Origin: a virus
Taxonomy: Duplodnaviria > Caudoviricetes
Direction: 5' to 3' (one strand)
Length of the DNA: 64,000 bases
IMG/VR virus record: IMGVR_UViG_3300021431_000081
Location: 64,001-128,000 of that record
The notes beneath the pieces were generated by a model that did no database searches, was not told the origin of the DNA, and was given only the letters and a program-made list of their open reading frames with translations. This document shows positions 3,122 to 22,808 of the stretch, in pieces. The translations under genes were made by a program, and so were the position numbers. How positions within the stretch are numbered: position 1 is the first letter of the stretch; the number at the start of each line of letters is the position of its first letter.

Positions 3122-6100
3122 TCACGCATACTTATACTTACTCATAGAGTTCTTACCTAATACTGCACCCAGTGTCATATCCTGTACCGCATTCTGGAAG
3201 TTACGATCAGCTACAAGAGCGGACTTGAACTCATCATAATTCTTCACATTAGGAAGTGTGATACTTAACTGAATAGTAGTATTCGGTGAGAGAGTAGTAT
3301 TGGTGGTATTATTGATGACAGGTTGAGATCCGAAAGACTTAGCAAACATATCGGGAATATTCATTTTCGCTAATTTCCAGAGATTATCTGTCATTTCAGC
3401 ATTAAATACCGCATCACCTCTACCAAGAGGAGTAAGGATAGCACCATCAGACTTACGGATAATAGTCTCAAGACCCTTTTCCTGAGTCCAAGCATTCAGA
3501 TCAGTAGGAACTGACTTAATACCTGTGACATAATGCCATCTTGCATGATAAGCATCGGAATTTTCTTTCGCTTTATGATAGGCATCTTGTGCTTCATCAA
3601 ATCTGGTTTTAGCATTTGCAAACTGTACTTCCAATCTGTTTAATTGACGCTCTAACTCTTGTATTTCTCTTTCTTTGTTTTCGTAGTTCTGTTTCGCTTT
3701 TAATGCTTCTTCAGATAATTGTCCTACCCTTGATTGACCTTTATATTTAGTAAATTTACTACGTTCCTCTTGCCGTTCTTTGTTTAACTGAGAAATATTA
3801 CGTTTAGTCTCAGCGATTTGTTCATTTAAAGTATTAAAATTGGAATATGCCTCATCTACTGTTTTCTTTGCTTGTTTAGTTTTACTATCCTTATCAATGG
3901 TATTCATCTTTTTAGATAAATTCTTCACCGTTGTAACAGTAGTATCATCTAAAGCGTCTTTTTCTTCTTGAGACATTCCTTTATACTCTTTAATAATGGA
4001 TCTAACAGCATCGTAATCCTTTGCCTTTAAATCTTTTTCTTTGCCAACATATCCAGAGACTTTTTCTCTAAAAGCTGCTTTTGCCTGTTCTTCAGGCTGA
4101 CGGGCTGCATCATCTATTACAGATTTTACGGCAGCTTCAATACGATTTTGTAAAGAACCGTTTTCTTTTAAAGCACCAACAAGATTATCAGTGATATTTT
4201 TATCTACTTGTTTCAAAGTGTTAACAGTATCTGTTGCGTTACTACTTACACCAAGTGCATCAATTTTATCAGCAAGTAAATCTTGCATCTTTAAAAGAAC
4301 TTTATCACGATTTTTCAGATACCTATCGATCCATTCTTGGAAATTAGCAGACAAATCATCCAACATCTTTTGGGCATCAGATAAGTACTTACTATATTCC
4401 GCATCCCGGAGATCCTGTCTGGCATCCTTAATATCTTTCTGGAGTTTCTGGATCTTGGATACAGACTCCTCAGAGGTATTATTCTGCCAAGCAGCTAACT
4501 GTTTCTCCAGATTGGTAATGTTATTAGCTTTTTCAGTAATCTGCTTCTGATAATCATAGGCTTCTTTCTCGGCGTTCTTTAATTCTTTATACTTACTAAT
4601 TGTATTATTCAGAGCAGTAAGCTGTGCTTCATAACCTTGACGAGCCAAATCAATAACTGCCTGTTTAGCGGCTTCCGCAGCTTCCATAGATCCCCAATAA
4701 GCATCTTGCAATTCATTCATACGATCAATTACTTCTTGATTTGTAGGATCTAGTTCATTTTTAGGATCATTGATCTTTTTGACCAAAAGATTATACTCAT
4801 GTAAATACTGTTGCGCTTCCGCAAGATTCGCTTTATAATCCGTATTCTTCAGATCCAAAGCAGCCATACCATATTGAGTAATATTGCCTTGATTATCTGT
4901 ATCAAAGAACTGTTCATTGGAAATCAGATTATAATAATGATCAATCTCAGAGTTAAGACGCTTCGCACGTTCAATACCATCATCAAATTTCTGCCAGTTA
5001 AGCTTCTCCATAGCCATAGCTTGCTCATGAATATCCAGATTCAATTCTTCAATAGAATCTTCCAATTCAGCTATGATTTGTTTCGCTTCAAACCATTCAT
5101 CAGAACCTACAGTTAAGTCCTTAAGAAGTTTTTGCTGTTTTGCTAATTCTGCATTATATTCAGCAAGCATAGAAACATCTTGACGAATAATGTTCTTATA
5201 ATCATTACGTTGAGCATAATGACCATAAGCCTCTGCTGCATCAATACGTTGCTGTGCTTTTGTTTTACGGCGATCATATTTATAACGATCTTTTTCACCC
5301 TGATTCTGGACATTCTTCATCTTCTGAAGTCTGCGTTGTTCATTCTCTTTTCTAATGGTTTCTTTATTGATTTCTGCTTGTGCTTTGGCCTCACGTCCCT
5401 GTTCAATTGCTTCATTATAACTCAAGCAAGCTTCTAAGAAGGAAGCCTGAATATAACCCGCATTTACCAATTCTGCAATTTCACCAATAGTATCCCCATC
5501 AATAGCCACTTTTGCTTTAATATTCTTTTGAACTTTTGTTAAAGCTTTCTCTACACGAGATTTGACTTTCTTATTTTCATTTGCGTCATATTTCTCTGTA
5601 GTTGCATTACCTTTCTTTAACGTGGTTTTTATTTTTGTGGCGTTCTCTTTCCTAAGCTTTGCAAATTTTTCAACTTTCGCCCGATCATTCTTTTTCTGTG
5701 CTTCCGCAATTTTAATTTGCTCATCAATTAATTTGTTTTGACCATCAGCTGTTGTTTTATTTTCAATTTGTTTATCACGAAGATTGATTTTATTTTGTAA
5801 TCGCTCATTTTTGTTATCATACATTTGAGCGTAATTCTGATAGATCTGTTGAATGTTTTCAGCAACCGCCAACATTTCTTCCATTTTTGCATCTTCGAAA
5901 TTTTGCAACGTCTGATTATAAACAACCAATTGAGCTGCCAATTGAGGATTCTTTTTCTCAATATAGCTAATATCTTTTTCTTTGACGGGTTTATTGTGAT
6001 CCATCGCAGTTTTTATACGTTTTAATACTGTTTGATATTCTTTATGAGACTTTTTAACAGTTCCATTTTTAACCCGTTCTTTTTCTAGTTTAGCTTCTTC

Positions 6101-9100
6101 CTTTGCTAATAAAGGATCAAGTTCAATCGATACTTCTTTTGACGCTTCTTCAAAATCTTGAAGATTCTCTTGAGTGGCTTTTCTATGAATTCTAATTTGC
6201 TTTCTTCTTTGACGATTTTCATAACGAAGTCTGCCGTTAGAGTATTGATAAGCATTATCAGTTCTTGCTTCAAAGTTGCTTTGAGCAATTTGAATGAAGT
6301 TATCAGATAAACTAACTCCCGCATCACGTTGTGCATCATGAACTTCTTTTAATGATTTGGCATATTCACGAGCCTGGGCCTGAAGTTCTTGAAGGGCATT
6401 CTTAGCTTCAATAGCCTTATCAATCCATTCTTGAGTACCTTCAATTACTTTACGGGTATCTTCATCATAGCTATTGATATCAATTTCACCATTAAGAATT
6501 TTATCCCATAATGCATCTTGATTTTCTTTGGTTTTTTTAGGTATGCCCTTTTGGTTCATTCCCTTTTTGAAAACTTCTTCAGCTTGGGCATAGTATTTAT
6601 CATATGCTGCATCTTCATTGCCTATTTGCTCATATATTTTTTCTAAAGCATCTTTGTACTTTTTCTCTGATAAACCATATGCCATACGGTCAAGGAATTC
6701 TTCAGCGAGAGAGGAGAGTTGATCAATCTTAGTTTGAACACGCTCTATGCGGATTTCAATCCAATCAAAAAGTTTATCGAGGTATTTATCAAAGGCATCG
6801 GTCTTATCTTTCTTTTTGGTGGTGGTTGAACGTTTTCCATCGCCGTTACCGCCACTGCCTTTACGCCTTCCACCGTTGCCATTACCGTCACCATCTTTAC
6901 TATCTTTTTTAGGCTTCCGTTTAGTATTTACAGGTTCAATATTAACATCACCATTAATAATAATAGTACCATTATTACCCAATGTCTTATTTAAAGAATC
7001 TAAACCAGTAGAACCACCTGCATAAGCTACTCCACGAGAATTTATAGAACCATATTTAAACAGTTCTTCTGTTTGTTTATGGTTGAAAATAATATCGCCT
7101 TTTTTAACGTCTCTGAATTCAGCACCAGATTCGCCCAGTAAATCCCATTTAGTACCACGTACACGGAGTTCTGGGCCGAGTTCACCTACAAGAGAGGGTT
7201 CTGTTTTCTTAGCACCTATTGTACCTGATGCAAATGCGTTACCTTTAAATAATGAAAAATGAGCATTGCCTTTATATGAACCTGGTCCATCACCATTACC
7301 ATTACTATTTTCACGGTTAATTTTAATTTTAATATTAACAGTACGATTCATTTTATTTAATTCGCTGTTAATATTAGATAAAACTGTTTTGGTTGAATTT
7401 GCTTCACTATGCAAAGATCCTAACACTTTGCTACCACTAACAGAAACACCATTAATACTATTAATAGTATTTTTAGCAGTACGTGCCTCAGAAGAAATAT
7501 TCTTTTCTTTAGAAGCTACCCCTTCAAGATTTCCACTTATAGAACTCAGACTAACATCATTAATTTTTCCAACGTCATTAACACTTGTATTGGCTTCTTC
7601 AGAAATATGTGTTATACCTTCATCAAAATTAGTAGTATCTAAGGTGGCTTTATATTCAATAACTGTTTCTGTAGTTGTAGTTTCTTGTTTTGGTGCTTCT
7701 CCACCATCACCATTCGGACCTTTTTGCTCCCGCTTATGAAGCTTTTTAGTATTGGTATTAACTTGTTGCCCACTTTGGTTTAATGCGGTTGAGGTTGTCA
7801 ATCGCCCCATTGTTTGTTCTATCGTTGTTAAATTAGTGAGAAGTTGGTCAGAACCTAATGTACCTATTGTATAAGAATTAATAGTTGTAATTGCTTCACC
7901 CAAATTTTGTGCTGCAGAAGCAGATTCTTCACTTATAGTCGTATTAAGATCTTTAATTGCTTGTTGAGCCTTTTTCGTATTTAATCTATCAGCTTCTTCT
8001 TGTATTTGCTCAAAGGTTGTTTTTCCGCTTTCCCCTAATGATTTTATTGCTGTAGAAGAAGTAGTAAGATCTATATTATTAAATAGCGCACTTAATTGAC
8101 CATTTGAAAGCTGATTCATTTCTCGTAAATCGCCAACAATACCTTCAATTTGTTCTCGTGCCTTTTGTCCTGCAGTACGATCCCCAGTTGCTTCAGCAAT
8201 TTTATATGCTTGCGCTGCAGCGCTAAGTTCATTAATTTTTGCAGCAAAATCTTTTTCTGCTCCCTCTTCCATACCAGAGATATCAATTACATATGTCTGG
8301 TTGGTCAGGGCAGCTAATTGTGCTTGTGTATTTTTAATTAATTCATTAAGCGCTTCTAAAGACGCCTGACCATTTTCGGTATCAATAAAATCGCCATTTT
8401 CGTCATATAACGCTTTTTTTGCTTCTTCTAACTTATTTAATGCAACGGTAGCATCAACAGCATTATCATACTCAAGATCAAAATCAATTTGATCATCCTT
8501 CTCAAGACCTTTATTTACAGTTTCTTTTAATTCCTCTAACTCTTCAGGAGTCTTAAAACTATCAACTGCAATTTTATATAATTCTATTTGACGGTTAGCA
8601 TCGGCTATTGCGTTAGTGTATTGATTCCATAATTCAGAATTTTCTTCTATCTCTCCACTATTAAGACGCTCATTCATTTCATCAATAGATTTACTAAGCT
8701 CATCTATAGTAGTCGGCGCTCCATCTAAAGGATCAAGAAGATCATAAGTTACTCCTGCATCAAGCATTGATTTCACCAATTCACTCGATACAGAGAATCC
8801 TTCTTTTCCTAATACATTTTGCATATAATCTGATATCGCTGCAGCAATCATTCCTTCGTCTCCAACAGCAAAATTCAAATCACCATTTTCGTCAAAGAAA
8901 CGCTCCATTCCTGCTTGATGTAATGCTTTTTCCGTCATGTCAAGAAAATCATTTACACCTTCGTTATCATTAGTCATGTATTTTTTAATAAAGTCCGCAA
9001 TATTCTTTTTTTGCCCATAGACTTTATCACCATTCATAGACTGACCCGTGATCATTTCCATATATGCAAGGACTTCAGGATCTGCCCAACGTTCATTGTC

Positions 9101-12100
9101 TAATTTACCCTTGATAGTATCCCATCCTCCACGGATGGTATCATACATAGTCGCATCAGATCCCATCTCTTGAGACTGTAACCATTTCTGATAAAGGCTA
9201 TCAGATACTTCAATCTGAGCATTCATTTTTGCCCAAGATGTTAATCTGGTCTGAATTTGACTTTGCTCTTGTGATAAAACACTAAGACGAGTTTTTTCGG
9301 CATCTGTTAATGCTTCACTCTTACTTGTGAGGCTTTCAATTTCTTCTTTATTCTTTTTATATTTAGTGGTTAATGTATCATATTGATCATTTAACTTCTT
9401 ACTAATATCATGTTTTTGAGTATTAATCATTTCCTGCGCAGCTTTTGCATTTAATTGCATGCCATTCGCACCTATAGAAATTGCATCTGCAAAACCTTGA
9501 TATGTTTCAGTTAAAGATTCAAAAGTTTTTTGTGATAAAAAGCCATTCTTGCTTTGTTCTGCCATAGCAGAAGAAAGTGCTGTTGAAGATTCGGCCAATG
9601 TATTGATTGCAGTATTCGTACTATCAGCGAATTCATTCCATTTATCAGCAGCTCTACCTGTAGTTGTTGCTGATACTAATTCAAATTGCTGCATTAAATT
9701 AATTGCGTCTTGAATAAAAGTAGGAGATTGGAAATCTACTAATCCTGCTCGACCAAATACTCTGGCAACATTCATTGCGGATTGTTGGATAGAAGAGTAC
9801 TGATCTTCAGGAATTGTCCAATCAATTTCACTTAATTCTTCAGCACTAATTTCTTTAAGATCCTTTAATGCATCTGTATAATTATCTTTTAATTTTTCTT
9901 TTACTTTATCATTGATAAATTTATCTGGATCAAAAGTCATAATTTCATCGGCCTTTAAAGAGCCAATAATTTTTGACCATGAAGTACCTGCAATATAATG
10001 TGCAATTCGATCATTTTCTGAGCCAGATAACATGCTCATCAATGAAGACTTTCTATTTTTAAATACCTGTTGAGTACTATCAATACCAAAAGCATCAATT
10101 AATTCCTGACGTTTATCTTTTCCAATATGAAGCGCATTCATAGCTGCATCAAGGCGCTGTTTCATAATATCTGCATAATCATTAACATCTATCTTGGATA
10201 AATCAGGAGAGATAAAATCTTTAAGTACTTGAGAAGCCTCGCCTGTAGCATCTGATCGAATAGTATCAACAAATTTTAAATAATCTTCAGCACTAATTAA
10301 TGCTTCTTTTGAAAATTGCTGTAAATATGCAACTCCATCTTGTGTTACTTGACTATCCAAGCTAAGATCGGGCGTAATTTCAGCATATGATTGTTTTAAA
10401 TAATCAACAGCATTTTGATAACTCTCTTGTGCCGATGTTATTTCAGCGTAGTATTGCTTAATTTGATTTTCTAAATCTGTAATAACTTTTGACTTCGATT
10501 CATTCCGATATTTTGCTTCACCCGTAAAGCTATCGTAATCATAAGCTACCTTTACAGTATCGCCCTCTTGTTCTTGAATTTCTTTAATTTGTTGCTTTAA
10601 TTTATCTATTTTTCCTTGATTTTCTGCGGTTTTATCGTCAACCGCTTGCTTTAAAGCAGGTATTCCTGCATTAGAAGAAGGATTCACTAAAGAATCAATA
10701 TTAAAAGAAGTTGCGTCAATTATAGCCCCTTCTTTTGCTTGGGCGAGTTCCCTATATTTATTAATCTGATCTTGAATAATTTCAGTATTTGCGAGAATAG
10801 CATTACCTTCACTATCCCAACCAGTTACTAATTCAGGGAACTGTTCTGCAATTTGTTGACGAATAGCATAATATTCTTCAGATCCTGCTTCAGCTTCTCT
10901 ATATTGATCTAAAAGTTGCTGAAGAGAATTGGCGCTATTATTATATTCATCGTATTCTTGTTTAAGTGTGTCTGTTTTCTCTTTACTGGAATCAATAAGT
11001 TTTTGATTACGTTTAGATACAGCATCAAGTGTATCTGCGTAATTATTATATACCCAAATAGCTGCTCCTACAGTTGCTGCAATACCTGCAAAAATAAGCG
11101 CACCTTTACCGAATAAAGAAAGCTGCGCCCAACCTGCTTTTAACCCATCCCTAAGTTTACCACTTTGAGCGGTTGCTTCTTTCATTGCTTTGGCAACATC
11201 TTTAAATTTTCCTGCAACATGTTGGATTTGTTCTACTCCATCTTCGTCTATAATTTGAATATCTTTACCCTTTGTAAGTCCATCTTGCAAAAAGTCAAAA
11301 ATAGTTGTTTGTTTTTTCGCAGCCTTAAATAAAACACCATAACCACCAAATATTGCTAAAGCTGCTGTTTTTAATAAACCAAATTTATCAACGACTCCCA
11401 TGATCACAGAGCCAAGATCAAGGAAAAAGTTAATAACATCTCTATTTGCTGTTCTTGCCCAGGCTTGTTGCCATTGGTTCTGAAGTTTGGCTAAATGACC
11501 TGAAATAGAATCTTGATATTTTTGTAATTCTTCTTCAGCTGAACCGAATGAATTTTGAGACGAACTATATACATCTCGTAAAAGTTTTCCATTTTGTAAT
11601 ATCGATGCGACAACGTTTGCCCTATTCTTCAAATTATATTTACATATATCGTAACTATATGCTTTTTTATTTTATGCTGTGCATAAAATAAAAAACTCAT
11701 ACTTTCGTATGAGATTAGACTATTTCTTATCCATCACTTTGATGGTCATACTTTTTCGATTACAGGTATTTAACCAACGCCATTAACTTGCGTCCTACTC
11801 CTATTGTTAAAGATATTCAGGATTTCCACCTTTATTCTCAAGTCTTTAACCCGTTCGGGGATAGTCGTTGAACGTTCACCCTCGACTTAACTAACATATG
11901 GTCTATGTGTGACGTTAGGGTGCTTCGCTGCATGAACAGTAATTATTCTTCATAATAGAAGAGCAGTACTTAGGCTTTTAACCATATACCATCCTTACGT
12001 TTTTTCTACTTTCGTACCATCATAATGTGGTTTCCCCATTATTGTGGTGTAAGGCTTTATACATTACCTGCAATTAAATATGATCTATATTGCATATCAC

Positions 12101-15100
12101 TATACAACCCGGTAAGATTACGTTTACCGGCTAACACTTCGAGCAAACCGTTCGCACGGTTCGTGCCATATTGTTTATCTGTTGCAATTATTTCTTCATA
12201 GACATCTGCAATATCCTGAAGAATCTCATAGGTGCTTCTGAAATTACCGTTTTCATCAAGTATATCTACACCTTTAAAGCCATTACTAGCTACAGCAGTG
12301 TAATCTTTAATTATTTGTTGAGATTTCGCTGATGTTTGGACTACGAAGTCATCTACGTCTTCTCCAAGATCAGCAAGTTCGGCCTTTGCTTCCTCTGTGC
12401 CAGTTATTCTCAAAGCAACCGTTCTCATTGCATTGCCGACCTTTTTAGGGTCCTGCACAACTGCATTCCCGGCAGTAATTAAAGCAATTGCTTCATCAAT
12501 GTCATTCGATTTATTATGAGTTTAAAACTCACTTTTTTATTATGCAATGCATAATAAAAACTGCATCTTTCGATGCAGTCCAGACTATTTCTTCATCTTC
12601 AGCTTTACCTGTTAAGAGTACCCTTTTCGATTTAAGAGATTTTCACTCACATATTAAATATATGCCCTACGATTATTGATTTAAGTATTCAGGATTTCCA
12701 CCTTTATTCTCTTGCTTAAATCCCGACATGGATCTAGTCGTTGAACGTTCACCCTCGACTCAAGCACCGTATGTTCTACGGAATACGTTAGGGCGCTTCG
12801 CTGCATGAACAGCCAATCCTTACGTTTTAAAACCATCATAATATAGTTTCCTTATTATTGTGGTGTAAGGCTCTAAGGCATTACCTGCAATTAAGAATAT
12901 TCATATAATACATTTCTGTATTATCAGGCAATTAGACATTTCTTTTTACCTGCTGTTTTTAATGAACTTGCTGACAACTGTAACGCTGTTGCAAGGCCAT
13001 CAGTACTAATTGAAAAGTTATTACCTACATTGTTTAACTTATCAATAATATCCATTTTGCCAAGATTATCATAAGCTTGGCTCATAGCTACTAAACTTTC
13101 AGTAGCTTCATCAATACTTTCAAATTCTGATACATTAAGTAAAACGGAAGCATCTTTTGCAGATTCTTTTGCGTCATCAAGCGTCTCTCCAAGCCTCATC
13201 CAGTCAGCAGTACTTTGCTGAATAACTAATCCAGTAGTACCTGCCTGATTTGCTATATCATAACTTTCAGTTTGAAATTCTTTAAGACGGGAGAGTGGTT
13301 CATCAGATACTTTTGCCATTTCGGTTAAAGCATCATCTAATTGATGAATAATTTCAAAACCCTCACGAGCATAACGAATAAAATCTTGAATAGAAACATA
13401 TGATAAGAAATAAGCACCTAAATCTTTAAATTTTCTTACTAATTTTGTTGAAAAAGTATCTCCTACTTTTCCTGCCTTATTTAATTCTTGTTCAAAACTA
13501 TTAACTTGTGCTATCGCATGCTCTAAAGAAGCTTGATTTACATTTTTTAAGCCATCGCTAATTTCTTGTAAATATTGTTTTCCCTCTTCCCCCATCTTTG
13601 GGTTATTCGTTATTAAATTACTAATTCTTTTTTGTAAAGCGGTAGTATTTTTTTCACTAGCCTTAATATTCTTTTTGTCACCTAATTCATTTTCTAAGTT
13701 TTGTACTTGATGAACTAATTCACCAATCTCTTTTATTTCTTGAGGATTAGTAATATCAATACCGTTCTTTAATTTGTTTTGAAGAGTCGTAATAGTTTGA
13801 TCCAGTTCATCTAATTGAGTTTTATATTGATCAGTATTTATAATTTTATTATTATTAAATAACTCATTAAATGTTTTTTTCTTTCCAATAGTTTTGTCAA
13901 CAATATCAGATACTTTTCCCGCATACCTTTCAGAAGCAGATTCTATCGCTTTTTCCATTTGAGAGTCTAAAATGATATCTGTAGATTTTCTGTCATTTAA
14001 TAATGTTTGTCTTTTATTGTATTTTTCTTGTATTTTACTAATTATATTATCAAAAGATTCATCAGCATTAACTTTTAAACTTTTTTCTGCTAAAGAAGCA
14101 CTTTCCTTAATTAGTTGTTGTTCATCTTTATACGATTGTTTTTTATCCTTTTCTTCTTTTCGTTCTTTCTCTCGTTTTTTTTTACTTTCTTCTTTTTCTT
14201 CTCTTTCAATTTCCTTATCTAATTCTTTTTCTTCTTTTCTTCTTTGCTTTTCCTCTGCCGCTTTCTTTTTCGCAACTTCTGCCTTTAATTCTGCATAATG
14301 TTTTTCTTGATCATCTTGTTTTTTCGATTCTTTTAAAGTGTTTAATTGCTCTTCTTTAGATTGACGTATTTTTTCTAATGCTTCTTTTTCATTATCAGTT
14401 AAATTTAAGATTTGTTTGTTTAATTCATCTTCAACTTCTTGTTCTTCATACATACGTTGTGTTGCAGTTGTGTTATCCTTTGCAGGATTTGTCACATTTC
14501 TTTCTAGCAAAGAATATTTTTTATTCAAAGCCTTTTGTGCTAATTCAAAACTGTTATTTACAGCATCCTCAATTCCAGATACAACGGTTCTTTGTACTGA
14601 CTGACTAATCGGATCATATTTATAATCTGTTCGCCATTTTCTTTTATTACCATGTTCATCAGTGTCTTCATGATCAACGTGATATTTTGAAATGTTGCCA
14701 AACCTGTCTTGGGTATAATATTGATTTTTTCTACTATACTGATCAAAATTACGTTCATCAGCAGCAATAGCTTGTAAAATTGCTTTATGACCTATTTCAC
14801 TAATACGTTCTTCATCAGTTAAATCTTTAGAGTCTCTTTTTTTCTTATTAGTTTCTTTTTCTTCTTCAGCCTTTTTAGTATTTTCAATTTGTTGTTGTAT
14901 TTCCATACTTTTTACTAAAGAAGAAAAATCAATATTACTTAAAGTAGTAAAATCTACATTTAATTGATTTAATAAATCTGTTATTGCAACAAGTTCCTCT
15001 CGAAGCTGCTCAATAAAAGTCACTTCATTATAAATTACTTCTTCAACAGTACTATTTTCTTTTTCAAAAGCTTCGGTTTTATCATTAACGGCTCCAGTTA

Positions 15101-17159
15101 CTTTTATTATTGCATCAAATAAACTACTTATTTGTGTAGATTCATTAGAAAAATCTAGTGCTTCACCAGTACTATCGGTTATTTTTTTTATTTGATTAAT
15201 TGCTTCAGTTAAAGATGGAATTATCTTATTTAATGTTTCCGCAAAATCAGAAAATTGATTATCTTGCATCTCTTTTCCTGAAAATACTTGTTTTATCGTA
15301 TCCAATAAATTATTAATTGGTGTTGCTTCTTTTTCCAATGTTTTTATTTCATTTCTATAATTTTTAAATATTTCGCCAAACTGAGATTCCCAAGCACTAA
15401 TATCAACACCCGCTCCTTTAAGTAGCTGTTGTATTATAGAAATTCCATTTTTAAAATAATCAATTGTATTTTGTAAACTTTTTCCGGGAGACTGTTCATT
15501 GTGCGCTATATATTCATTAAACAAATCTACATTAGAAGAAACAATGTTACCTTTAAAACGACTTTCAACAATTTCACCTTTTTCATTATATATATCTCTA
15601 TATAAATAACGTTCTAAAGAATTATAAGCTTCTTCAATTTGAGGAACGAATCTTCTTTTTATTTCTCCTTCTTTTTGAGCCTGCACAACAGAATTATTCC
15701 CTTTAAAAATTGATTTAAAATCACCTAATTCAGCAATTTTTTCATGTAAAGTAGTTAAGGTTTCATTCAAACCGTCAAAGCCTTTAGAAAAATCAATATT
15801 TTTTATATCATTTGCTAAAGTTTTTATTTCGCCTAAGTTCTCTTTTATGACGTTAAAAGATCCAAAAGTATCTGTTGACGCTAAATATCCTATACCTACT
15901 TCAATTTTATCTAATGTATCAATTAATTCTGTAAAAGGGGTCTTAATATCTAAATGGCTTAAAGCTTCTAATTCAGTCGTAAGTTTTTGAACTAACGCAA
16001 TTAAAACTCCAAACGCTTCAGCATAATCACCACTTATCTTACTAGGATCAAAATTCATTACAGCTTTATCTAATAATTCTTGTATATAATCAACTTGATT
16101 TGCATATTGCTGATAACTATCGAAAGCGTTTTCATATAATATCTGTTCTTGTTTTACTTCATTTGAATCGATACCATATTGTTCAGATTTGTTTGCTGCT
16201 CTTTCTGAACGCCACTCTGCAGAAGACAAATAATCATCTCGTATCTCTTTTAATCGTTTTAATTCTTCTTGTAATTTTTGTATATCATCTAACTCATCAA
16301 AATCTAAGCCCCAATATGAATCACGATCCGCTTGTTCACGTAACTTCCTTTTTTCATCGGCAAGTTTTTTAATTTCTTCTCTAGTTTTTGCAATTATTTT
16401 ATCTGGCGTTGAAGAAGTATTGCCAGAACCATCACCTGGTCCTGTACCATTACCATCACCATTACCATTGCCTGATCCATTTCCATTATTTGAAGATCCT
16501 TTATTGGTCTTTTGAATATTATCCAATGCATCTTTTAAAGAAAGCGCTTCAATTTTAGCTTTATTTAAATCCTCAGTTAATCCTTTGAAACCTGCTTGCT
16601 CTAAAGCTTCTTGGGGTATTTGTTTTAATAAGCCAAATAATTCTTTAAAAGCATCAACTGTTTGTGGTAAACCGCCTTTTGAATTTTTGTCCAATCCTTC
16701 ATATATTTCTCTAATACGAGTAACAAATTCAGCCATTTCAGGATTAATTTTTTGAATATCTCCACCCAAGGCTTCAAAGGCATTAGCTCTTTTCCATAAT
16801 TCAGATACATCTTTAGAACTATCTTTAAAGAAACCCTTATCATCAACTTCCCCATTTTTCCATTTTGATAATAGATCTTGATTTTGAACTAATTTATTCC
16901 ATTGTTCAATTAATGAATTTTGTGCATTACCTATTGATTGAAAATATTTTTTCGGATTTTTTTGATTGTATTGCTTTATACCTGACAATTCCTTATTAAT
17001 ATTTTCAACGTCTTTATTACCTTCTATTTTAAATTCAATTTTATGACTACCTTCTACTGAGCCAATCGAAGACGCTAAACTTTTTACAGCTTCTGTCAAG
17101 GCACGAATTTCATTACTAGCACCAGATCCACCTTTATTACCTGATATTTTTGTAGCCAT
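3122..17159 (-). CDS. Tape measure protein, three exons (17159-12948, 12506-12126, 11629-3122), about 4366 aa after splicing
   Basis: Spliced junctions restore ...SASSLKTAG|NDIDEAIALITAGNAVVQDP... and ...LLEVLAG|KNRANVVASILQNG..., which read as continuous tape-measure core sequence. Long helical/coiled-coil composition; lies between chaperone-like genes and the tail-tip gene. Confidence 0.92.
11630..12125 (-). ncRNA. Group I intron (IA-like, 496 nt, no ORF), tape measure intron 2
   Basis: 5' site after GCCGGU; terminal G at 11630. Core motifs CAUGCAGCGAAG, GUUCAACGACUA (R) and AAGAAAUAGUCU (S). Guide UCUU-ACCGG pairs both exons; removal restores the frame. Confidence 0.9.
12507..12947 (-). 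ncRNA. Group I intron (IA-like, 441 nt, no ORF), tape measure intron 1
   Basis: P1 CAGGU/GCCUG with U.G wobble at the splice site. P10 AAUGUC..AUU pairs exon 2 start AAUGACAUU. Same core motifs as intron 2; terminal G at 12507; removal restores the frame. Confidence 0.93.
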
Positions 17160-21711: not shown

Positions 21712-22808
21712 TTAGTCTTCATCATCATCATCAGCCCAAGTGATGTAGTACAGCAGTTTTTCAGAACCGCAGTAAGAGGACTGCAGAGAACCGCTGAAGT
21801 CTACGGTAGCATCCGTAGTCAGAGACAGAGAAATCTCAGGGCTGATTTGGAAGGACGGGAAGGTAATATACATTGCCTTGAGCGTATTGACAGAACACGG
21901 ATCGATAGCGAGCGCTTTTACAGTCAATTTAATAGTTCCAGGGAATTTGTCAGACTCATTAACGATCTTTGCACCAGTATTAACGGTACGATCATATTTA
22001 ACAATATACTGTTCAATACCAGTAGTATTAGGAGGTGTAAGCGTTGTTACACCATCGACAGTGGTAATATTATAAGCAGTTAAGTCATAAGTCTGTCCCA
22101 TACCACCAGAGGTATTCATATCAGAAACCTGAATAGTACCTTCAATAAAACCAGTGATATCAAGGGTTTCACCCTTCTTCACAACAGCAATACGAGGCAT
22201 TACAATAGTATGAGATGTGGTAGCCATCTCAGCATCCGTACCAGAAGCAGTAGCCAGAGCGGAGAAATTAATCATTGCTTCTGTAGCGGTAACTTCGCCA
22301 GTTTTTGCCTGCCAAAAGCGTTTTCAATTTCTGTTACTTCTATGACCTATTATGAATATAAAAATGCAAATAATAGGCGAGTAAGTATTTCTACTTACTT
22401 CTCACATTTCATTTTTTTTAGATTATAGTGTGAGTTCAGACTGTATATTCATCCTTATAAAAATAAGGAGAGCCACTTCAATATATATGTCACCATATAT
22501 ATCCTGCAGTCGTTACGGATTCTCTCATATAAAGAGTCTTTCCTCGGTCTTGTCCATCTCTGGAGTTTAACCGATATAGTGGCTTTTTAATTATGTATTA
22601 CTACATAACCTGGCAAAACTTATACCAGAGTGCCTTGGGCATCAACAGCGTCTTTAGATTCAGCAGTAATATCAACAGTAAAATTATTTAACTGAGACAT
22701 CAGCAGTACAGGTACATCAGTATCTACACCATTAACTTTCTTTGTCATTTCACCGTAGGCGAATTGTACTCTGTCCACGATGATGTCACCAAGCATGAAC
22801 TGTGCCAT
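21712..22808 (-). CDS. Major tail (tube) protein, two exons (22808-22624, 22324-21712), 265 aa
   Basis: ATG 22808 with AAAGGAG RBS; splicing gives ...DAQGTLV|KRFWQAKTGEVTATEAMINFS...; beta-rich, Thr-rich; acidic tail; tail-module position. Confidence 0.8.
22325..22623 (-). ncRNA. Group I intron (299 nt, no ORF) in the major tail gene
   Basis: Guide GUUUU-GCCAG pairs 5' exon CUGGU (U.G wobble) and 3' exon AAAAC. P3 GCCACU/AGUGGC; R CCGUAACGACUG; S AUAUACAGUC; terminal G at 22325. Confidence 0.92.

Follow-up and report, generated by a model that had tools for sequence, protein, structure and literature searches.

The closest described systems are the lambda01-like prophages of the Bacillus cereus group, whose tape measure gene holds group I introns at three sites (Tourasse and Kolsto 2008, PMC2504315). 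Two of these, TMP-IVS1 and TMP-IVS2, belong to subgroup IA2 and are 80% identical overall and 90-92% identical in the P3-P7 core, with P1 and the guide fitted to each site; in E33L, TMP-IVS1 and the IA1 intron TMP-IVS3a lie in the same tape measure gene, and some of the B. cereus tape measure introns lack a complete endonuclease gene (PMC2504315). Elsewhere, orf142 (tail tube) of Staphylococcus phage Twort is recounted as containing three group I introns with short exons and exon skipping (Landthaler and Shub 1999, via PMC11878797), and the skipping of exons through group I introns has been reported in both Twort and SIOphi (PMC11878797). Cluster J mycobacteriophages carry related introns in capsid and tail genes, one with and one without a homing endonuclease, whose splicing was confirmed by reverse transcription PCR (Pope et al. 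2013, PMC3706429). Here we describe two introns, A and B, in the tape measure gene of an uncultured tailed gut phage (Duplodnaviria; Caudoviricetes) from IMG/VR record IMGVR_UViG_3300021431_000081. The window analysed covers 64,000 nucleotides (nt), bases 64001-128000 of this 155,845-bp record, and the gene lies on its minus strand. Given the B. cereus prophage and Twort precedents, such a two-intron arrangement is already known from other phages. We consider it likely that A and B are self-splicing group I introns of the IA type, free of any endonuclease open reading frame (ORF) and situated in the PhageMin_Tail region of the gene, and that they entered it independently rather than by duplication within this genome.

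The gene appears in the window as three serial open frames on the minus strand (17159..12924, about 12509..12057 and 11632..3122). Spliced in silico, these give a product of 4366 amino acids (aa) in one open frame, with the sole stop at its terminus. To set the junctions, we compared the ends of all three exons with 80 IMG/VR loci coding for relatives of exon 2 (individual loci are cited below by L numbers). At site A, intron-less relatives read TAG|NDIDEA (the vertical bar marks the junction) joined with a gap of 0, and exon 1 ends at the very point where these homologues run gap-free into NDIDEA. At site B, intron-less relatives read LAGKNR(A/S)N and the window junction reads LAG|KNRANVV; the junction chosen for intron B is the sole option that combines U at -1, a terminal intron G and homologous protein sequence. 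Removal of the introns thus restores the host gene precisely at both sites, as judged against intron-less homologues. The closest tape measure relatives found, L009-L011, are without both introns and encode an uninterrupted counterpart of exon 2 with 81-85% aa identity; in L011 site A is vacant and intact, with the sequence CAGCAGGT|AATGAT. Moreover, the domain PF10145 (PhageMin_Tail) is split between the C-terminal part of exon 1, which covers profile 7-111 at 23.2 bits, and exon 2, which covers 114-189 at 27.4 bits; scored separately, both lie under the gathering score of 33.2 bits. In L009 (68.5 bits) and L011 (57.7 bits) the same domain runs unbroken across both sites (profile 14-190). The initial annotation had placed two introns 381 nt apart at 11630-12947; those coordinates are exact, and the exon between the introns is 12506..12126.

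Both introns have the anatomy of group I ribozymes. Using cmscan in E-value mode, each matches RF00028 across model positions 1-253, A at 12957..12561 (49.7 bits, E 3.9e-11) and B at 12126..11696 (32.4 bits, E 5.9e-6), and both end in omega-G. The P7 5′ strand of A, which lies in a conserved block present in both introns (Table 1), pairs with 12582..12589 (J8/7 plus the P7 3′ strand), and the P7 3′ strand of B is found at 11717..11724. Minimum free energy (MFE) folds of A and B contain P1 hairpins, P2, and P9 and P9.1 hairpins, with MFE z-scores of -5.2 and -5.35, respectively. We tested the fold on a 25-sequence alignment of the intron family described below. The RNAalifold consensus held 72 pairs, 46 with compensatory changes; with P3 added as a pseudoknot, this rose to 76 pairs in 17 helices, the P3/P7 pseudoknot included. 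Pairing cells amounted to 96.7%, against 82% in shuffles and 31-40% with the partners slid, and 50/76 pairs showed changes on both sides, a level reached by 0/500 shuffles. In three members, for example, P7 has switched from GACUA/UAGUC to GAUCA/UGAUC. Hairpins that covary were seen at alignment columns 338-408, flanked by P7 (321-325) on one side and P3′ (467-471) on the other. These correspond to P7.1/P7.2 and therefore point to subgroup IA for both introns, perhaps IA2-like. A search for an endonuclease ORF in A or B found none, the sole sense ORF being one of 52 aa (12839..12681) with no Pfam match.

Each intron also carries a guide that fits its own exons. In A, P1 is formed by the exon sequence CAGGU (12952..12948) and GCCUG, with the canonical U.G pair between U12948 and G12929, and P10 by AAU at the start of exon 2 and AUU. 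The guide of B, UCUUACCGG, can form 9 uninterrupted Watson-Crick pairs with the ligated junction CCGGU|AAGA; its P10 is AAGA/UCUU. The initial annotation was therefore right that the two guides differ and that each fits its own flanks. From this anatomy, each intron would fold on the pre-mRNA while its guide pairs with the end of the upstream exon (P1) and the start of the downstream exon (P10), and guanosine-initiated transesterification would then remove the intron and restore a single reading frame.

To place A and B among their relatives, we gathered introns from tape measure loci, from IMG/VR with two exact core motifs and from prokaryote genomes with one motif, and then searched with nhmmer. 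The first nhmmer sample yielded 80 instances, 39 of them unique, and a larger sample yielded at least 110 unique sequences. Beside 103 of the latter, on the same strand, lies a tape measure match to PhageMin_Tail. Numbered on the protein of the window, the occupied sites lie at about aa 1379, 1404 (A), 1417, 1430-33, 1437-40, 1510, 1531 (B) and 1578. The conserved 25-mer at 12735..12759 is exact in 52 IMG/VR contigs, and contigs with the core motif are assigned to Clostridia, Ruminococcus and Lachnoclostridium, a Coprobacillaceae chromosome having it too. By these matches the family occupies no fewer than eight sites and hardly occurs outside the tape measure genes of gut Bacillota phages.

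The two introns resemble each other far beyond chance, with 344/415 aligned positions identical pairwise and a MAFFT column identity of 77%; their cores are 85% identical pairwise at aligned positions and 67% identical when gaps are counted. The five long identical blocks highlighted by the initial annotation are all present, once per intron (plus-strand starts 11862/12735, 11814/12686, 11922/12795, 12038/12854 and 12062/12879). One explanation of this likeness is local transposition, whereby one intron was copied to a second site in the same gene, for example by reverse splicing, and its guide was re-adapted. Membership of the same family, the long blocks and the spacing of 381 nt are all compatible with such a copy, and so are the targets, which are alike (GCAGGU|AAU and GCCGGU|AAG) and leave two P1 guide positions to change. 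However, exact copies of the blocks recur in 4 to 25 of 37 other members of the family, and because they are conserved core elements family-wide they are uninformative on recent duplication. Moreover, for either intron, dozens of those from other phages are closer kin than its twin. The identity between A and B in the trimmed alignment is 70.8%, which, among the matches listed, ranks 60th of 109 from A and 94th of 109 from B. The nearest relatives of A (L129, L096, L092, L109 and L091) reach 81-82% in the trimmed alignment and 85-88% in core pairwise comparison, with a maximum of 88% for L091 and L129. The nearest relatives of B are L090, L099 and L112, together with the same-site intron L120, and its core maximum is 88%, with L099 and L090.

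Phylogeny places the two introns in separate clades. In the 39-row maximum likelihood (ML) tree, A falls in a 95/89 clade with L110, L096, L129, L092 and L109, and B in a 99/97 clade with L090, L099 and L112, which occupy the equivalent of the aa-1433 site. A and B were never sisters in three ML trees. The approximately unbiased (AU) test rejected an A+B clade with 39 rows (p 0.00057, at a cost of 50.9 log-likelihood units) and with 110 rows aligned by hmmalign (p 0.038). Character states agree with the trees. An extension in the P5 region is present in B and, with the motif of B, in 45 of the 110 members listed, and is absent from A; only 2/364 columns hold a state common to A and B that is rare elsewhere; and 25 diagnostic columns follow the split into two clades against 3 that run the other way. 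Taken together, local transposition is an unlikely origin for this pair, and the grouping of each intron with other lineages rather than with its twin is the very outcome that the initial annotation had named as refuting its scenario. What survives of the transposition and re-adaptation scenario of the initial annotation is that A and B belong to one family and have guides adapted to their sites; the local origin does not, given the identity ranks, the trees and the P5 extension.

Since A and B belong to different sub-lineages of the family, we favour independent entry, and the wider distribution of these introns supports it. L009-L011 are intron-less, site B is occupied by a same-site intron in L120, and 13 other loci have 2-3 family introns per gene, whose co-residents are mostly far apart in the tree among the matches listed. 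The only close-kin co-residents are those of L144 (Coprobacillaceae chromosome CP139560, presumably a prophage), where two introns about 170 nt apart (L144:2116-3032) rank 6 and 1 of 109 relative to each other among the matches listed. The two introns of L112 had appeared as sisters suggestive of local duplication (92/92 in the 39-row tree); we dropped this candidate, as they rank 99th and 83rd for each other in the 110-row tree. One IMG/VR phage, L216:1216-2892, has three family introns in 1.7 kb separated by exons of about 235 and 300 nt.

With regard to the route, A and B would derive from different sub-lineages of the tape measure intron family and would have entered the gene separately, likely by homing or recombination from co-infecting phages. 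An endonuclease ORF, still present in some relatives, would then have been lost, leaving A and B as ORF-less descendants. Some relatives indeed contain ORFs of 308-523 aa inside their introns, 3′ of P9 (L015:1953-2945, L019:1406-2974, L076:3823-4746 and L133:12638-13591). Above the Pfam cut-off these match CapR (35 bits, in L133) and DUF723 (28.5 and 26.4 bits); below it they match the treble-clef finger DUF4379 and DUF2726. They may represent an uncharacterised type of homing endonuclease. The exact exon-intron junctions of A and of B had no match in the IMG/VR scans, hence these scans gave no near-identical copies from which to date the insertions.

Several results count against the reading we favour. 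Firstly, both RF00028 scores fall under the 50-bit gathering score, and cmscan in gathering mode returned no match at threshold; the long insertions at the positions of IA peripheral helices would lower these scores. Secondly, the ORFs in the introns of relatives have weak Pfam matches only, and we infer their role in homing. Thirdly, no other occupant of site A was found among the collected family introns. Fourthly, the 110-row tree has a poorly resolved backbone and an unsettled bootstrap, and the MAFFT alignment of the 110 rows does not reject an A+B clade (AU p 0.066), a result that speaks for local transposition. Lastly, the splice-site U12126 of B faces A12113, not G, and this U-A pair might impair splicing activity.

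The last point bears on another alternative, that B is a decayed insertion which no longer splices and leaves the tape measure gene broken. The U.G pair, here replaced by U-A, is described as crucial to 5′ splice-site choice (PMC2504315), and the Rfam score of B is the 32.4 bits given above. We looked for a U.G pair in B through other junctions and P1 registers, none of which retains LAG|KNRANVV with a terminal G. Nevertheless, B retains intact core helices, omega-G, P7 and J8/7, its guide is the perfect complement of the ligated junction, and the three exon frames stay open throughout their 4366 codons. Moreover, the U-A pair is kept elsewhere. The intron of L120, in a tape measure region 38% identical to that of the window with the junction LAG|KQRGN, shares with B its site, the U-A pair and the 3′ tail AAUAUAAUU(U)G (its 3′ end is the same AAUAUAAUUG tail), and its P1 reads CUGGU/ACCAG against CCGGU/ACCGG in B, a compensatory change. 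In all, the U-A pair is seen in B (12109-12130), L120:590-625 and L015:1270-1300, with all three junctions fixed by protein homology. Its retention in very divergent hosts, beside a compensatory change, argues from these sequences that the pair is tolerated, and we regard a decayed B as very improbable. By eye, U-A pairs were also read in L092/L109 and L113a/L108a, whose 3′ junctions are not fixed by homology. A C-G pair at the cleavage site of site-1433 relatives (L112b) came from one hand-read junction and we do not assert it.

The spread of sites raises a further alternative to wholly independent entry, an ancient intragenic site switch in which a family intron moved between GCNGGU|AA tape measure sites in a genome other than this one and gave rise to the lineages of A and B. 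With at least eight sites occupied, several of them have (T/L/I)AG-type codons, GCNGGU followed by AA. The nearest clade of A sits near the end of the PhageMin_Tail domain, a few codons from the equivalent of site B, in very divergent tape measure genes, and a like pattern is known for IVS1/IVS2 in the B. cereus prophages (PMC2504315). Nevertheless, the tree is unrooted and poorly resolved and gives neither the direction nor the genome of such a move, and the exact 5′ splice sites of many relatives are not fixed. We therefore give this alternative little weight beside independent entry.

A broader proposal would be that these introns form a previously uncharted family for the tape measure genes of gut Bacillota phages, changing site by guide-directed, reverse-splicing-like integration into GCNGGU|AA and including a lineage that cleaves at U-A (B and L120, also L015). 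It would cover at least 110 distinct sequences and at least eight insertion points spread over some 200 codons of the PhageMin_Tail domain, with at least 14 phages having 2-3 copies in one gene. We put this forward tentatively, as a possibility less likely to be right than wrong. If true, the U-A-cleaving lineage would be a natural relaxation of a near-universal rule of group I ribozymes.

Coordinates of the features discussed are collected in Table 1, together with a third predicted intron of the same genome. The latter splits a gene starting at ATG 22805, and its removal joins ...QGTLV|KRFWQAK in frame; the host gene hit no family in Pfam or PHROG scans. Neither the hidden Markov model of the tape measure intron family nor BLAST with intron A matched the third intron, which is unrelated to the family of A and B. 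All three introns of the genome sit in an NGGU|AA context, namely CAGGU|AAU (12948/12506), CCGGU|AAG (12126/11629) and CUGGU|AAA (22624/22324), and GCNGGU is also found upstream in the relatives L015, L019, L076, L120 and L095. This context may reflect guide-directed site choice or a common endonuclease preference.

Table 1. Features of the tape measure gene and of the predicted introns, in window coordinates
Feature	Coordinates	Strand	Details
Exon 1	12948..17159	-	ATG 17159; 1404 codons; terminus ...SSLKTAG
Intron A	12507..12947	-	441 nt, short-P5 form; 5′ splice site after U12948; omega-G 12507
Exon 2	12126..12506	-	381 nt; 127 codons; NDIDEA...LLEVLAG
Intron B	11630..12125	-	496 nt, long-P5 form; 5′ splice site after U12126; omega-G 11630
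Exon 3	3122..11629	-	2835 codons plus stop; N-terminus KNRANVVASIL
Intron A, guide	12925..12932	-	AUU = P10; GCCUG = P1
Intron A, P6 3′ strand, J6/7 and P7 5′ strand	12735..12759	-	25-nt conserved block
Intron A, P7.1/P7.2 peripheral block	12686..12711	-	26 nt, same in B; between P7 5′ strand and P3 3′ strand
Intron B, guide	12109..12117	-	P10 + P1
Intron B, P6 3′ strand, J6/7 and P7 5′ strand	11862..11886	-	25-nt block identical to that of A
Intron B, part of P5-region extension	11966..11990	-	not in A; family alignment columns about 165-245
Third ORF-less group I intron (predicted)	22325-22623	-	RF00028 31.5 bits, E 1.1e-5; P1 CUGGU/GCCAG with U.G

The host gene has further features of its own. 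At 4366 aa the tape measure protein is exceptionally long; by the rule of thumb of about 0.15 nm of tail per tape measure residue, the implied tail would be roughly 650 nm. Exon 2 measures exactly 127 codons, so that joining exon 1 to exon 3 would stay in frame and drop half of the PhageMin_Tail domain. In the related tape measure genes of L014:2940-3480 and L018:2940-3480, in-frame TAG (asterisk) stands where homologues have Q (for example KT*G, RA*ALVE and SIL*NG), which suggests that these phages read TAG as glutamine. Megablast of 17 kb around the gene found no match among phage records, and the phage therefore lacks any closely related sequenced record in that collection; of public phage records, MT835469, an unannotated human-faecal phage, is nearest.

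As the gene needs to be spliced twice to yield the tail-length protein, virion assembly would depend on ribozyme activity. What is added here is scale: one intron family in one domain across many gut phages, usually with several independent invasions per gene. Automatic annotation will fragment such tape measure genes. Moreover, the conserved U-A cleavage pair offers a natural variant for gauging how strict the U.G requirement is.

Lastly, we compared this locus with the known systems. Like the tape measure introns of the B. cereus prophages, A and B are homologous introns at different tape measure sites whose guides differ per site; unlike them, they occur in gut Clostridia-type phages, in a much larger family with at least 110 sequences, at least eight sites and one U-A lineage, and blastn against Bacillus phage records found no DNA similarity. 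The likeness to Twort is that one virion tail gene, there the tail tube gene and not the tape measure gene, holds several self-splicing group I introns. The introns of cluster J differ in having high-GC (guanine plus cytosine) actinophage hosts and in lying in different genes rather than at two sites of one. Similarity at the DNA level to a described intron was seen with lysK of Staphylococcus phage K and its relatives: the 3′ part of B (P3′, P8, P7′ and P9; 11696-11806) aligns over about 110 nt, at 74.6% identity, with the lysK intron region of 119 Staphylococcus phage records. There the host gene encodes an endolysin, the host genus is another one and the 3′ core alone aligns, yet the match points to a shared IA-type ribozyme ancestry of B and the lysK intron.

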